NCBI GenBank assembly: GCA_044450345.1
Contig: JBIOIY010000027.1
Location: 1-38,383, forward strand
Reading direction: 5' to 3'
DNA from: Thermodesulfovibrionales bacterium
GTDB taxonomy: Bacteria > Nitrospirota > Thermodesulfovibrionia > Thermodesulfovibrionales > UBA6898
DNA: 38,383 bases
Part shown: one piece after another, positions 9,328-36,330 of the stretch
Layout of the letters: each line of letters begins with the position of its first letter
Position numbering within the stretch: the stretch's first letter is position 1
The notes under the pieces: generated by a model
Database searches by the model: none
What the model was told of the DNA's origin: nothing
What the model saw: only the letters and a program-made list of their open reading frames with translations
Position numbers and translations under genes: made by a program

Positions 9328-10095
9328 TTACGCCTGCCCCCGTCCCCCGGATACCTTACGCATCAAAGCGATGGGCCTCAATAGTATCAATCCGGGCTTG
9401 CCGGAAATATAATTTATTAAATCCTCATCTACAACTTTTCGATGACGCGACGAGGCGTGCCTCAAATATGCTTTCCCCTTACCTGTTATTATGATAATGC
9501 CGACATGCGAGACATCGAGTCCCGGGGCTTCCGAATATATACCGGCGTAATCGCCTGTGCGGAGTCCGTTGAGGACCTTGTCGTCCACCGCAGGCGACGG
9601 GATATATTTTATTTCGCGCCGTGCGGGCCGGATCCCCGCAATCCACGATGTCCCGTCCCCCTTTTTGTTAAGTACCTTTTGGACTGTTACCGCCGCAGAC
9701 TCTCCAATCTCGGGAGTGGCGTCTTTCACGAAGGCCGCATTGGACTCCATCCAGTCGGTGAAGAAGTGGTTCCGGTCTTCAAAGGAGATCCGTCCTCCCC
9801 CGTATCTGATTTTTTGCAGGTTCGCTACAAAGTCGGAAAAAGAGCCGGAAATCCTCATCGCCTCCACGTAATCGATAAAGGTAAAGCAATCGACACCTCC
9901 CAAATTCACGACAAAGACCTCAGGCGTATTCCGGTCCCCAGGGAGAGTATACTCCTGGTAAGCCGTCCCTAGAAACTCCCGGGAGAGAACATCAATCCTG
10001 TTTCCGGCATCTCCGATCTTAGAAGACTCTAGGATGAACTGGTCCAGTTCCTTTTCCGTCCATTTACCTGAGATAAAAAGTATTCTTTCCCTCAT
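9328..10095 (-). CDS. DUF1460 / AmiA-like N-acetylmuramoyl-L-alanine amidase (NlpC/P60 fold)
   Basis: FLGTAY, VDCFTFIDYVEA (catalytic Cys), RNHFFTDW, GLDVSHVG, RHASS. Confidence 0.88.
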   Translation of the reverse strand: MRERILFISGKWTEKELDQFILESSKIGDAGNRIDVLSREFLGTAYQEYTLPGDRNTPEVFVVNLGGVDCFTFIDYVEAMRISGSFSDFVANLQKIRYGGGRISFEDRNHFFTDWMESNAAFVKDATPEIGESAAVTVQKVLNKKGDGTSWIAGIRPARREIKYIPSPAVDDKVLNGLRTGDYAGIYSEAPGLDVSHVGIIIITGKGKAYLRHASSRHRKVVDEDLINYISGKPGLILLRPIALMRKVSGGRGQA

Positions 10096-15966: not shown

Positions 15967-17274
15967 TCACCCCGTCGCCCTCCCGCCGTTTTCGATAAGG
16001 GCCTGAACAGGCTTTAGACCGTACGGGGTACCCTGCTCAATCGCGGTAAGGACCGTCCCGCCGCCCGTGAAAAAATAATATTGTGCATTATCGAGCACCG
16101 AAAGGTAAAGACCCGGACAGAGGTCCTTGAACTCCTGGAGCGTATCTCCGCCTCCGTAAAGTTTCTTGGCGTGGGTGTTCCGGTCGATCGTCTCGTCGAG
16201 CGCCTGGGAGCCGTCATAAAAATGCGGGGTAAGCCCCATCACCGCGTTGACAAAGAGGGTGCTTGAATGAAGAATCGCGTCAAGGACCGTCTTATCCGAA
16301 AAAGATTCCTTGTCTATGTCCAGGATGTACCCGTAGCTATTGCCCTTCCTGAAGTCCTTCAGCGAGAGGGTCCTGTGCTTTCCCTCCACTTTTCCATCGA
16401 GGATGTCCGACTCTACTACGAAGGGGAGCTCAACTATCTTCCCGTCCTTCTCATCCATGGCCACAAGTTCCTGCGCAGCCTCGATCTCTTTTTCGGAGAC
16501 CCCCGCGATTCTCACGCCGTATTTGGCGCATAAGAACGTGTTGTAGATTACTCCCCCGAGGATAAGCCTGTCGGCCTTCCGGTATATCGCATAGAGCGGC
16601 CCGATCTTCGTGTCGTATTTCGACCCGGCAACTACGGCAGTGAAAGGCCTTCCGGGGTTGAGCACGTAATCGAGGTTCACTATCTCTTCCTGCATCAAAA
16701 AACCCGCAAATGAGGGCAGGTATTTGGCGATGTCGTATGTCGAAACATGGGGCTGCCACGAACCGAAGGCGTCATTGACGAATATGTCCGCAAGACCTGC
16801 AAGCTGATGCGCCAGCTTGTCCTGTCCTTCTTCCTTTGACTCTTCGGCCTGGAACCAGCGTGTATTCGGCAGATATATGCCGCCTATCCGCCTCTCCTTC
16901 AATGCCCTTATGGCGTGGTTAATTGACGTGTCGATGCCTGTGATGCCCTGGCCGGGGACTACGTTAAACTCGGGGATATGGAATTTGATATGGAGCTTAC
17001 GTTCAAGATATTCGACGATAGGCCTGACAGACTCTTCTTCCCTGCACTTGATCTCGCCCGTCTTCTTGTCCTTCGGTCTTCCGATATGGGTCATCAGGAT
17101 CGGCCGGCCGCCCCTTTCGACGATGTTATAGAGGGTGCCGAGAGTGCGGTCGATACGGTAAGGGTCCCTGATCTGGCCGTTCTTGACGACGTTGTGGTCG
17201 AACCTCACAAGGACGACCTTCCCCTCTATCGGGGCGTTCTGCAGCAAGGGGAGCCGCTCATCTATCGCGGACAT
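15967..17274 (-). CDS. pgk: phosphoglycerate kinase (divergent)
   Basis: VLVRFDHNV, THIGRP, FVNDAFG, AGFLMQEEI, GSKYDTKI, GGGDT, TGGG. Confidence 0.85.
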   Translation of the reverse strand: MSAIDERLPLLQNAPIEGKVVLVRFDHNVVKNGQIRDPYRIDRTLGTLYNIVERGGRPILMTHIGRPKDKKTGEIKCREEESVRPIVEYLERKLHIKFHIPEFNVVPGQGITGIDTSINHAIRALKERRIGGIYLPNTRWFQAEESKEEGQDKLAHQLAGLADIFVNDAFGSWQPHVSTYDIAKYLPSFAGFLMQEEIVNLDYVLNPGRPFTAVVAGSKYDTKIGPLYAIYRKADRLILGGVIYNTFLCAKYGVRIAGVSEKEIEAAQELVAMDEKDGKIVELPFVVESDILDGKVEGKHRTLSLKDFRKGNSYGYILDIDKESFSDKTVLDAILHSSTLFVNAVMGLTPHFYDGSQALDETIDRNTHAKKLYGGGDTLQEFKDLCPGLYLSVLDNAQYYFFTGGGTVLTAIEQGTPYGLKPVQALIENGGRATG

Positions 17275-17417
17275 ATGACACCTCTAGGTCTAACTATTAC
17301 CTTCATTTATTAATGAATAAATAGTAATGTAGTTTAGAGGCAATTGCAAGGATTGGTCGCTGCAGGAGAAACGCCGTCGCGAACTTCACCGACGCCCATT
17401 TAGAGGACACCTGTCAA

Positions 17418-17797
17418 GGTAAAAAGATCCTCTTTCGAAGTTTTTTTGACTTCTCCCTTTTCATGAGCTGCCGATAACCTTTGCCATTGCCGTTTTTTCT
17501 TTGATATTCGGCTGCAGTCTTCACTGTGCCAGACACCCATCAGGATCGAGGCCGCACCCAGAGATCACTCCCCAAAGAGGGCCCTTCCGCTTTATAGCGA
17601 ACCAGAAAACCTTCGGCTCCGTGCCGGGTCCAATTCGTTTCGTACAATTCCTATGGTTCTTAGACCAGTCCGCCATGGCTCCCGGCCCGGGCAGTAAAGA
17701 TACCGGTAACTCTTATGTTGCTGGGTGAGACAGTGTTCCAATCAAACCGTTGGTTTAGTCCCAGTCGGTGAACAGGTTAGCTGCCCCACCCAGTCTT
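17418..17797 (-). ncRNA. candidate bridge/seek RNA of the IS1111-type element
   Basis: About 380-nt non-coding region 3' of tnp. It contains UUCACCGAC (17764-17772 on minus), identical to the flank TTCACCGAC (17385-17393). Boundaries approximate. Confidence 0.65.
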
Positions 17798-18817
17798 TCA
17801 TGCAAACATTTTCTCAGGCATGAACGGGACTCCGTCTCTCATGATGTAAAACGCCGCCCTCGCCAGCTTGTGTGCCAGTGCACTGTGCGCAATCGGTGCG
17901 TTTGTCCTCCTCCGCTTCCGGTCATAATAAGCTCTCGCTTGAGGGTCAAGCCGTCGCGCAAGCTCTCCTGCTTCGGCAAATGCCCAGGACAGATATTTGT
18001 TGCCGTTCTTCCTGTTATTTGTCCCTTTCTTCTTGTCATTGCTGAATCTCGCAGCAGGTACCTTCCTGCAGTACGACACATAGTTGCCTACATCTGCAAA
18101 GCGATCAATAGGACCCGTCTCCATCATGATCGTCAGTGCCAGGACCCTTCCGACTCCTGGCATACTTAGGAGAAGATCATACGGCCGCTTGAGGTTCATC
18201 TTTTTTTCTACGGCCACCTCGATTGCCCTGATCTGCCTGGTAAGAGAGTCAATCGCATCCTTACTCACCCTGCCGGCAAGGGAGAGATCATCGTTGCCAG
18301 CTAAAAGCGGTGTCACCTGATCCTTCCTCAATGCCTTTATATGATTCGCATTCATCTTTGCACCTATGTTCCTGGCGAGGATGTTCTGAAGACTCAAAAT
18401 AAGAGATGTTCTCAACCTCACCAGATGTCCTCGTTTCCTCAGAAGGTCTCGGAGAGGTCTTTGTTCCCTTGGATAGATGAATCCCTCAGGCAATATCTTC
18501 AGTCTCAGCATTTCGGCAAGCCAGAAGGCGTCATCTTCGTCATCTCCATGCTTGAGTCCACAATACTGCTGCACTCTGGAGGGATTAGCTAAGTGGACCT
18601 GATAGCCTTCCTCCATCATAAGATCGACCAGCACATACCAGTTGTAAGTCGACTCCACGACAATCCCCTCAATATCCTTTTTGAATGGTCTGAGTGACTC
18701 TGAAATCAGACTTGAATCGTTCCGGAGTTTCTTCTTCCATAGTCTTTCACCATTCTCATCGATGATCCCCACAAAGGTATTGGTTGAATGGAGATCAAAT
18801 CCTGTGTACAATCCCAT
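17798..18817 (-). CDS. IS110 family transposase/recombinase (DEDD)
   Basis: GFDLH, VVEST, DEDDA, PGVG, FSND (Ser loop), GNKYL..AF, ALAHKLARA. RBS GAGGAGG precedes ATG 18817. Confidence 0.96.
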   Translation of the reverse strand: MGLYTGFDLHSTNTFVGIIDENGERLWKKKLRNDSSLISESLRPFKKDIEGIVVESTYNWYVLVDLMMEEGYQVHLANPSRVQQYCGLKHGDDEDDAFWLAEMLRLKILPEGFIYPREQRPLRDLLRKRGHLVRLRTSLILSLQNILARNIGAKMNANHIKALRKDQVTPLLAGNDDLSLAGRVSKDAIDSLTRQIRAIEVAVEKKMNLKRPYDLLLSMPGVGRVLALTIMMETGPIDRFADVGNYVSYCRKVPAARFSNDKKKGTNNRKNGNKYLSWAFAEAGELARRLDPQARAYYDRKRRRTNAPIAHSALAHKLARAAFYIMRDGVPFMPEKMFA

Positions 18818-19310
18818 AAAGCACCTCCTCAAAGGTTAAGATTGGTTCTCTTACCTCGAGCATACCGCAAACCGATATGCTCGGGGAGGTGCCCTCTATA
18901 TGATTATCAACTCAATAGTTTCAGGCGGACAAAACTCTATGAAGATTACGAACAGAATAGAAGACCTTTCAAAAGATCTGATGACGCGTGTTCCAGCCAC
19001 AAGTTTTCATTTTTTAGTAAGCAATTAAAGCGCGATTTCGAGTTGAAAGAAAGATTACCAAGACGGATCCCAAGCTCTCTTTAAAGGGCTTCGACGACGG
19101 GTTAAGCCCCAGGTGGCCATCCCCGGAGGCTTACAATTAATTCTTGTACAAATTGCAATACTATTTTACAAGAATCTCAAAGTGAACACGCTCGATTATC
19201 CCTGCCTCACGCCCGACCCATTTTCCCCAGATTCAGACGAAGTGCCGCTTGACATTTTTCCTGGGTCATTTCGCTTATGTCCCGGATATCGGCTGTGATA
19301 CTAAACACCT

Positions 19311-35448: not shown

Positions 35449-35483
35449 ACCCCGTTAGAAGGACAAAGGTCTTCTAACGGGGT
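35449..35483. other. strong hairpin upstream of the rhomboid gene
   Basis: ACCCCGTTAGAAG-N9-CTTCTAACGGGGT, a 13-bp perfect stem. Confidence 0.55.
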
Positions 35484-35526
35484 AAAATAGAGAGAAGGAA
35501 GATCTGCAGAGAAAGGAGCAGGGACA

Positions 35527-36330
35527 TTGTATAACGGCAGAAGGTGGGGTTTTTTTTCCGGAACAACTCCCGCGGTGAAATATCTGATACTGGTCAATTC
35601 CGGGATTTTCATATCTGAACTGCTCTTTCGCGCGAACTGGTCCGCTCTCTTCGGCCTCGCGCCGGCTTATTTCTGGAGGGGGTATATCTGGCAGCCGGTC
35701 ACCTACATGTTCCTCCATGGCGGAATATTCCACCTCTTCTTCAATATGCTCGTCCTCTGGATGTTCGGGACAACGCTGGAGTCGGGATGGGGTGAGCGCA
35801 GGTTCCTTACGTTCTATTTCATCTGCGGTGTGGGCGCAGGCCTGCTGAACGCTGCCGTAACGCCGTCCAGTCCGGTCCCGATAGTCGGCGCATCCGGCGC
35901 TATCTATGGTCTCCTCATGGCCTTCGCCATTCTGTTCCCAAACCAGCTCATATACATATGGGGTATATTTCCGCTCAGGGCAAAATACTTTGTTATCGTC
36001 ATCGGCCTCGTTGAATTCATGACCGCAGTGAGCGCAACACAGAGCGGGATCGCCCATTTTGCTCACCTTGGCGGGATGCTGTTCGGCCTTGTGTACATGA
36101 AGTGGGGTGACTGGCAGAAGTCGGTTTCCGGACGGCAGGCTGAAAAGAGGCGGGGCCGTCACCTGAATGTTGTATGGGACCGCGAGCAGGAAAAGCAAAA
36201 ACTGCAGAAAGAGATCGACAGGCTCCTCGACAAGATCGGAAGCAGCGGCATGGACTCCCTCACCGCGGAAGAAAAGGAGCTCCTCAGGAAAGCAGGCGAG
36301 AAGATAGCCGAACTCGAAAACAAGGGATAG
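35527..36330 (+). CDS. rhomboid intramembrane serine protease with C-terminal helical extension
   Basis: WQPVTYMFLH, HLFFNM, GASG, AHFAHLGG; tail EIDRLLDKI..GMDSLT.EEK.LL; TTG start with RBS AAGGAG. Confidence 0.93.
   Translation: MYNGRRWGFFSGTTPAVKYLILVNSGIFISELLFRANWSALFGLAPAYFWRGYIWQPVTYMFLHGGIFHLFFNMLVLWMFGTTLESGWGERRFLTFYFICGVGAGLLNAAVTPSSPVPIVGASGAIYGLLMAFAILFPNQLIYIWGIFPLRAKYFVIVIGLVEFMTAVSATQSGIAHFAHLGGMLFGLVYMKWGDWQKSVSGRQAEKRRGRHLNVVWDREQEKQKLQKEIDRLLDKIGSSGMDSLTAEEKELLRKAGEKIAELENKG

Follow-up and report, generated by a model that had tools for sequence, protein, structure and literature searches.

A Nitrospirota IS1111-type insertion sequence that probably encodes a guide RNA for its DEDD/serine recombinase

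We analysed a 38,383-nucleotide contig of a Thermodesulfovibrionales bacterium (the window) and found that positions 17395–18909 hold an intact IS110-family element with IS1111 architecture. With a probability of about 0.9, this element is RNA-guided: its DEDD/serine recombinase would be directed by an RNA that derives from the 403 non-coding nucleotides 3′ of the gene. The covariation between two short segments of this region and the DNA flanking each related element is directly observed, as is the anatomy of the element. The mechanism is already known, having been published in 2024 as seekRNA or bridge RNA (PMC11187229, PMC11208160), and the window element counts as a routine addition to an established class. 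It and its relatives extend the RNA-guided IS110/IS1111 recombinases by a Nitrospirota clade of about 100 elements. They form a clean natural data set: there are 10 or more guide classes, the target and donor segments always specify one and the same first core base, and two copies within a single genome are reprogrammed to different genomic repeats. Such natural variation can help to define guide length, core rules and mismatch tolerance in IS1111-type systems, which are less studied than IS621.

Element ends and transposase

The features of the element and its insertion site are as follows.

17395–18909, minus strand: complete insertion sequence of 1515 bp, a length that includes the left-hand core dinucleotide
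17798–18817, minus strand: transposase gene, 339 aa, ATG start behind an AGGAGG ribosome-binding site, stop codon at 17798–17800
18887–18902, minus strand: left subterminal inverted repeat, 16 bp, 14/16 identical to the right arm
17397–17412, minus strand: right subterminal inverted repeat, 16 bp
18903–18909 and 17395–17396: terminal extensions, 6–7 bp on the left and 2–3 bp on the right
17412–17417, minus strand: -35 hexamer TTGACA, kept in 15/15 aligned relatives
17385–17394, plus strand: right half of the target, core CG plus TCGGTGAA in element orientation; the same half-site is empty in contig C51
18910–19051, plus strand: left half of the target, the main body of a dispersed intergenic repeat whose other piece is 17356–17394

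The limits correspond to the extent of identity with a second copy, 91% identical, on contig C69 of the source genome. The sequence on the right-hand side recurs in contigs C39 and C51, where it runs straight into ...CACCGAC, and we therefore regard these two as empty paralogous sites. Joining the flanks of the window copy restores the 8-nt spacing of the target repeat seen in empty copies. In element orientation, the junctions read ...ATTGAGT-TG-ATAATC... on the left and ...AAATGGG-CG-TCGGTGAA on the right. The first base of the core differs between the junctions, T on the left and C on the right, and the target core was therefore probably CG, like that of the C51 site. An earlier examination of the letters alone (the sequence-only reading) had placed one end of an IS1111-type element at 17395. 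The C69 copy and the empty sites in C51 and C39 confirm this end, and the type is confirmed by two Pfam domains (PF01548 and PF02371), the downstream non-coding region and the subterminal inverted repeats. Its proposal that the element encodes an RNA-guided recombinase is probably correct as well, given the Pfam family, the guide/flank covariation and the fold described below.

Subterminal inverted repeats and asymmetric terminal extensions are the described end geometry of the IS1111 family. The repeats in this group are usually near-perfect over 11–13 bp; here, an 11-bp core matches at 10/11 positions in the window copy and at 11/11 in the C69 copy, and it can be extended to 16 bp at 14/16. 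With 16-bp arms, the left extension is TGATAAT or GATAAT and the right extension is GG or GG plus N, depending on the side to which the core base is given, a geometry that fits the 7 or 6 bp (left) and 3 bp (right) of the IS1111 group. Left and right arms covary in relatives (AGCGG/CCGCT, AAAGG/CCTTT). The non-coding sequence measures 403 nt 3′ of the gene and 92 nt 5′ of it, the long side lying downstream as in the IS1111 group.

If the ends were joined in a circle, TTGACA would be set 18 nt from GATAAT (18903–18908), and the pair could act as a promoter for gene and RNA. This function is predicted by analogy with the IS1111 family, in which a promoter across the joined ends is described for seekRNA elements (PMC11187229). 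A promoter-like site also occurs in the integrated copy at 18903–18932 (minus strand), where TTGTCC of the target repeat and GATAAT of the left end are separated by an 18-nt spacer (9/12 matches). The integrated copy might still be transcribed from it; such sites are no commoner in the region than in shuffles. An Rfam search of 17200–19200 returned no family at E ≤ 1.

The transposase carries the IS110-family domain pair, an N-terminal DEDD/RuvC-like domain (PF01548: 1.4e-16, 61.1 bits, cut-off 29) and a C-terminal Transposase_20 domain (PF02371: 9.4e-16, 58.4 bits, cut-off 21.3). It aligns with the IS621 transposase 8wt6 across both domains (E 1.9e-10). Its length of 339 aa lies within the 330–350 aa of the IS1111 group; the program-made list of open reading frames starts it at a TTG 5 codons upstream of the ATG. 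In the alignment, D8, E55, D91/D94 and the Ser of FSN stand opposite the D, E, D..D and the Ser of ESG of IS621, and we take D8, E55, D91/D94 and the C-terminal Ser to be the catalytic residues. The C-terminal motif is KVP-xxxx-SN and thus ends in SN, unlike the GL-P----S(T)G of the IS1111 group and its seekRNA elements (PMC11187229). Among 63 matches to the motif in the loci of relatives, the last residue is N in 62 and D in one, and the Ser is kept in 61 and replaced by Thr in two. A search of plasmids gave a best plasmid-borne relative of 50% identity, and the labels there are only the generic 'IS110 family transposase'.

A 435-aa gene (15967–17274, minus strand), which we read as a putative phosphoglycerate kinase, has the element about 120 nt upstream of it, and the insertion parts this gene from the upstream repeat. 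For genome annotation, the element is an ordinary mobile element upstream of that gene.

Guide segments, their fold and covariation with the flanks

Relatives were collected in a scan of species genomes (24 loci, mostly labelled Nitrospirota, Nitrospiraceae or Thermodesulfovibrionales MAGs) and a metagenome scan (79 loci). The 403-nt tail is strongly conserved among them with the exception of two short hypervariable patches, and the constant frame of the RNA loop is present in 78 of 105 sequences (the 24 and 79 loci plus the two copies of the source genome). Contigs from two RNA libraries, from relatives 85–95% similar, overlap 17483–17807 and parts of the gene, although contigs of this kind cannot show transcription, ends or strand. 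The segments of the tail are as follows.

17721–17793, minus strand: target-binding domain, a 13-bp outer stem (17781–17793 with 17721–17733) around an internal loop with a small hairpin
17764–17772, minus strand: guide 1, UUCACCGAC, complementary to the core G plus right flank, 9/9 with 17385–17393
17743–17749, minus strand: guide 2, CGGUU plus core UG, in the same sense as the left flank plus core
17541–17720, minus strand: conserved structured middle between the two recognition segments, with long invariant blocks and covarying helices in 15 relatives
17534–17540, minus strand: donor guide AUGGG-U-G, a same-sense match to the 5 final nt of the right end and the core

Guide 1 occupies non-coding positions 26–34 after the stop codon. 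The sequence TTCACCGAC is found on the plus strand at 17385–17393 and again on the minus strand at 17764–17772. The sequence-only reading had noted this 9-mer 25 nt after the transposase stop and just outside the element end, and its positions agree with ours. The window holds three exact copies against 0.24 expected, a number reached in 0/100 shuffles. The third copy, at 9754–9762 (GTCGGTGAA on the plus strand, preceded by CCA), is an unoccupied half-match that does not resemble the target repeat and is unrelated.

In relatives, guide 1 was defined as the 9 nt just 5′ of a constant UGG, and its reverse complement was compared with the DNA past the right end. Both pieces were available for 57 elements, 54 after dereplication. 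The mean match of guide 1 to its own right flank is 7.07/9, compared with 4.53 ± 0.24 for shuffled pairings, and 0/2000 shuffles reach it (n = 54). The score is 9/9 in 15 elements, 8 in 10, 7 in 12, 6 in 7, 5 in 4, 4 in 3 and 3 in 3; thus, 37/54 elements score at least 7/9 and 17/54 score 6/9 or less. The excess over shuffles extends over positions 1–9 and is gone at positions 10–11. There are 10 or more distinct guide classes that agree with their own flanks, among them GTGGCTGAC, GTCCGGTTA and ACCCTAAAG, each at 9/9. The sequence-only reading had suggested that the 9-mer acts as a target guide and that covariation of guide and flank across relatives be checked; the difference between 7.07/9 and 4.53 in 54 relatives backs this role.

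Guide 2 is the patch just 5′ of a constant AUUGG and consists of about 5 nt plus the core dinucleotide NG. In 47 dereplicated elements, its agreement with the left flank rises from.45 through.62,.72 and.77 to.91 over positions -5 to -1, compared with.22–.50 in shuffles. The mean over 6 nt is 3.68/6 versus 2.15 ± 0.17 for shuffled pairings, again with 0/2000 shuffles reaching it. This signal is confined to register 0; shifts of 1 and 2, tried as alternative registers, are at background and were discarded. The core N of guide 2 (T, A or C) equals the left-junction base in 46/47 elements and the first base past the right end in 54/59. The window copy is a poor example, since guide 2 matches its left flank at 2/5 positions while guide 1 matches the right flank at 9/9. 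The weak match to the other flank reported earlier is therefore real (2/5), and the view that one target guide is well supported holds for this copy; the family signal nevertheless reveals a second guide, CGGUU-UG.

Among 37 elements classified by flank match, both flanks match well in 10, the right only in 17, the left only in 8 and neither in 2. We also considered the inverse relation between right- and left-flank match (Spearman -0.56, 37 elements) as evidence and rejected it, as it is largely a contrast of two clades.

The base N of the donor guide is identical to the N of guide 2 in the target loop in 66/66 elements (53 T, 12 A, 1 C). In locus L023, a base change in the donor motif, given as U-to-G and also as first G, tracks its right end. 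The sequence-only reading had matched two segments to the predicted circle junction. One of them, GAUGGGUG, stands up, because it contains AUGGGUG (17534–17540), which equals the right end plus core; the other, UGAUCUC, is present, but its pairing with the left end is unsupported, as its complementarity to the core and left end is 4/9 and it changes while the left end stays constant. A further candidate for a right-donor guide, GRUYRUC, about 53 nt past the donor guide, matches at 7/8 with wobble in many elements. We rejected it because its columns differ in the clade with the other left end and equal matches arise by chance. No left-end-pairing segment could be established in the non-coding region.

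The 9-mer could instead be a leftover of flank capture or of recombination between copies, with the protein alone reading the target, and the good match of only one flank in the window copy would suit this explanation. It does not account for one RNA position matching different flanks in all these guide classes, for a signal that stops sharply past position 9, or for a core base specified in two distant segments without exception. We consider it extremely improbable and retain the guide interpretation.

The fold rests on a consensus of 15 tails and on counts of the named structure over 67 loop domains. In the outer stem, both partners vary at 11/13 pairs, and a pair is formed in 92.8% of cells, compared with 24–49% when the partner is slid. 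Inside this stem, invariant CC/GG and UGG/CCA pairs frame the internal loop, with guide 1 on the 5′ side, guide 2 on the 3′ side and the small hairpin between them; the two inner helices never vary and hence give no covariation signal. Single-sequence minimum-energy folds differ from the family consensus: about half of each guide is paired in the former, whereas the latter leaves the guides unpaired. For guide 1, 6/9 bases are paired in the window copy and a median of 5/9 over 67 sequences. As to the earlier suggestion that the 9-mer should lie in an internal loop, the family consensus places it there, while the single-sequence fold pairs 6/9 of its bases with the other guide. The naked RNA need not display free guides.

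Covariation with the flanks reflects base-pairing specificity and applies to RNA and DNA alike, so the guide segments might act as single-stranded DNA, as in target recognition by IS200/IS605-type elements. The protein, however, is an IS110-family DEDD/Ser recombinase, a type for which RNA guides have been demonstrated (PMC11187229, PMC11208160). The covariation of the closing stem is strand-specific and tolerates G-U pairs on the sense strand (16 at one pair), and the guide segments lie far from the element ends. Action as single-stranded DNA is thus very unlikely, and we favour a guide acting as RNA. This, like the circular form, is assumed by analogy with the family, in which experiments on relatives showed the seekRNA to co-purify with the transposase and to be required for movement (PMC11187229).

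In the proposed mechanism, the 13-bp stem just past the stop codon would close the internal loop, whose 3′ side (CGGUU-UG) would pair with the bottom strand left of the site, both guides including the core NG. About 190 nt further on, AUGGG-UG would read the right end of the element and the same core in the circular form. Two segments that pair with opposite target strands and overlap at the insertion point characterize a seekRNA or bridge RNA, and covariation and shuffles indicate both features here; the family consensus likewise puts the guides in the internal loop of a conserved fold. Donor segments in such RNAs read both ends of the element with a shared core; of these, the left-donor guide, AUGGG-N-G, is supported here by its core agreement in 66/66 elements.

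According to the portion of PMC11187229 on which this comparison rests, ISEc11, ISKpn4 and ISPa11 share with the window element the DEDD transposase, the long downstream non-coding region, the subterminal repeats and extensions of about 6–7 and 2–3 bp. The arrangement in IS1111 seekRNA elements is also the same: the top-strand-pairing segment lies 5′ of the bottom-strand-pairing one, and the two overlap at the insertion point (PMC11187229). Siddiquee et al. describe the guide order along the RNA as reversed in IS1111 relative to IS110 (PMC11187229). In the window element, about 190 nt of a 403-nt tail separate the target segments from the donor segment, whereas the seekRNAs reported there peak at 82–96 nt, with a long form of 154 nt (PMC11187229).

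The bridge RNA of IS621, as far as it is described in the corresponding portion of PMC11208160, also has an internal loop, in which the 5′ guide (8–9 nt in IS621, 9 nt here) is longer than the 3′ guide (4–7 in IS621, 5+2 here). The guides pair with opposite strands on opposite sides of the core, the core is included in both target-guide pairings, and a further segment recognizes the donor together with that core (PMC11208160). The order of the target guides is reversed relative to IS621, and the RNA lies in the right end here and in the left end in IS621 (PMC11208160). Further differences are the long inverted repeats, the low protein similarity (the E of 1.9e-10 above) and the right-donor guide, which we did not find here.

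Target repeats and the second copy

The target repeat is about 150–190 nt long and occurs at 13 places in the source genome, including the one in the window (nhmmer, E ≤ 1.2e-6; L029–L040). Copies are intergenic, often between convergent genes. The repeat is present in 4/7 other genomes of the genus and in 0/13 searched outside it. ISPa11 likewise targets a repeated extragenic sequence (PMC11187229). We considered the repeat as an RNA or coding element and rejected both, as there is no consensus RNA fold on either strand and no consistently open frame. An Rfam search with eight copies gave no match except an adjoining group II intron. This intron domain (RF02003, 60.4 bits, E 4e-12; L031 1–114, C45:167–280, minus strand) adjoins the C45 copy of the repeat on the side of insertion-sequence integration, and mobile elements of two kinds may thus land in this repeat.

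The window copy landed in a member of this repeat whose right half matches perfectly and whose left half matches poorly, with a C/T mismatch in the first base of the core. Such a copy could be a dead relic, now immobile, of an RNA-guided system that once worked: besides the poor left flank, the right junction has C where the RNA has T as first core base. Nevertheless, the frame is open, and the catalytic positions, inverted repeats, guides and junction-promoter hexamers are intact. In addition, excision that uses only the donor arm is reported for IS621 in a preprint (10.64898/2026.08.31.748434). We consider a relic unlikely, though far from negligible, and prefer to view the window copy as an intact RNA-guided element.

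The two guide patches are where the C69 and window copies chiefly differ. Both guides of the C69 copy fit empty sites elsewhere in the genome, in C32 (6/6 + TG + 9/9) and C18 (5/6 + TG + 9/9), and a stretch of 47 nt in the left flank of this copy equals the C18 site. Its right flank matches its own guide 1 at only 3/9 positions; this flank lies 126 nt from the contig end, and rearrangement and misassembly cannot be told apart as the cause of the mismatch. The cognate target of the C69 copy, ...GAAGAGTY-TG-TCCCGAAA, belongs to a second repeat family, found at C18 ~44028–44090, C32 ~35480–35560, C46 ~660–708 and C69 1684–1750. A suspected third copy of the element at the end of C32 turned out to be a right-end fragment only.

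Right-end arrays and solo units

The right end finishes with a 15-nt unit (TG-TCCTCTAAATGGG), of which 10/59 elements carry 1 to 7 additional tandem copies (L002 on C69, 127–186; the right ends of L013, L041–L047, L073 and L076). The guide-matched target comes after the 15-nt array. In L099, the repeated unit measures 21 nt. Solo right-end units with NG on both sides are found at target-like sites that lack an element (C10 ~62301, C36 ~1176 and C3 ~72219), and shorter right-end remnants occur at target-like sites in C26 (~10499) and C32 (~442 and ~35576). The sites in C26 and C10 are copies of the repeat interrupted by the window element. These units and remnants may be excision scars.

The right end contains two sequences that fit the RNA segment UGAUGGGUG at 7/9 positions each, AAATGGG-TG and, 15 nt upstream of it, TGACAGG-TG. 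The 15-nt unit begins at the internal TGACAGG-TG, which resembles the true end as the donor guide reads it. Guide-directed recombination at this look-alike could yield both arrays and solo units, with copies that have one badly matching flank, such as the window copy, persisting because they are unable to excise; we put this forward as a possible, if somewhat doubtful, explanation. If it were true, half-site (donor-arm) recombination and excision by a bridge-type recombinase would have left a natural fossil record in the arrays and solo units. A limited search of the literature on IS1111 excision footprints did not turn up end-unit arrays.

ISPpu9 of Pseudomonas putida offers a partial parallel, being described in the relevant portion of PMC12288879 as an IS110-family element with repetitive extragenic sites and repeated end boxes that lead to alternative recombination products. 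Its modules consist of the gene plus a small-RNA gene, whereas the repeated module here is confined to the 15-nt right-end unit (PMC12288879). A different duplication is seen in L018 (2925–2960), where a 16-nt stretch of flank starting from the core (TGACCCTACCGCCGTC) is duplicated in tandem directly past the right end.
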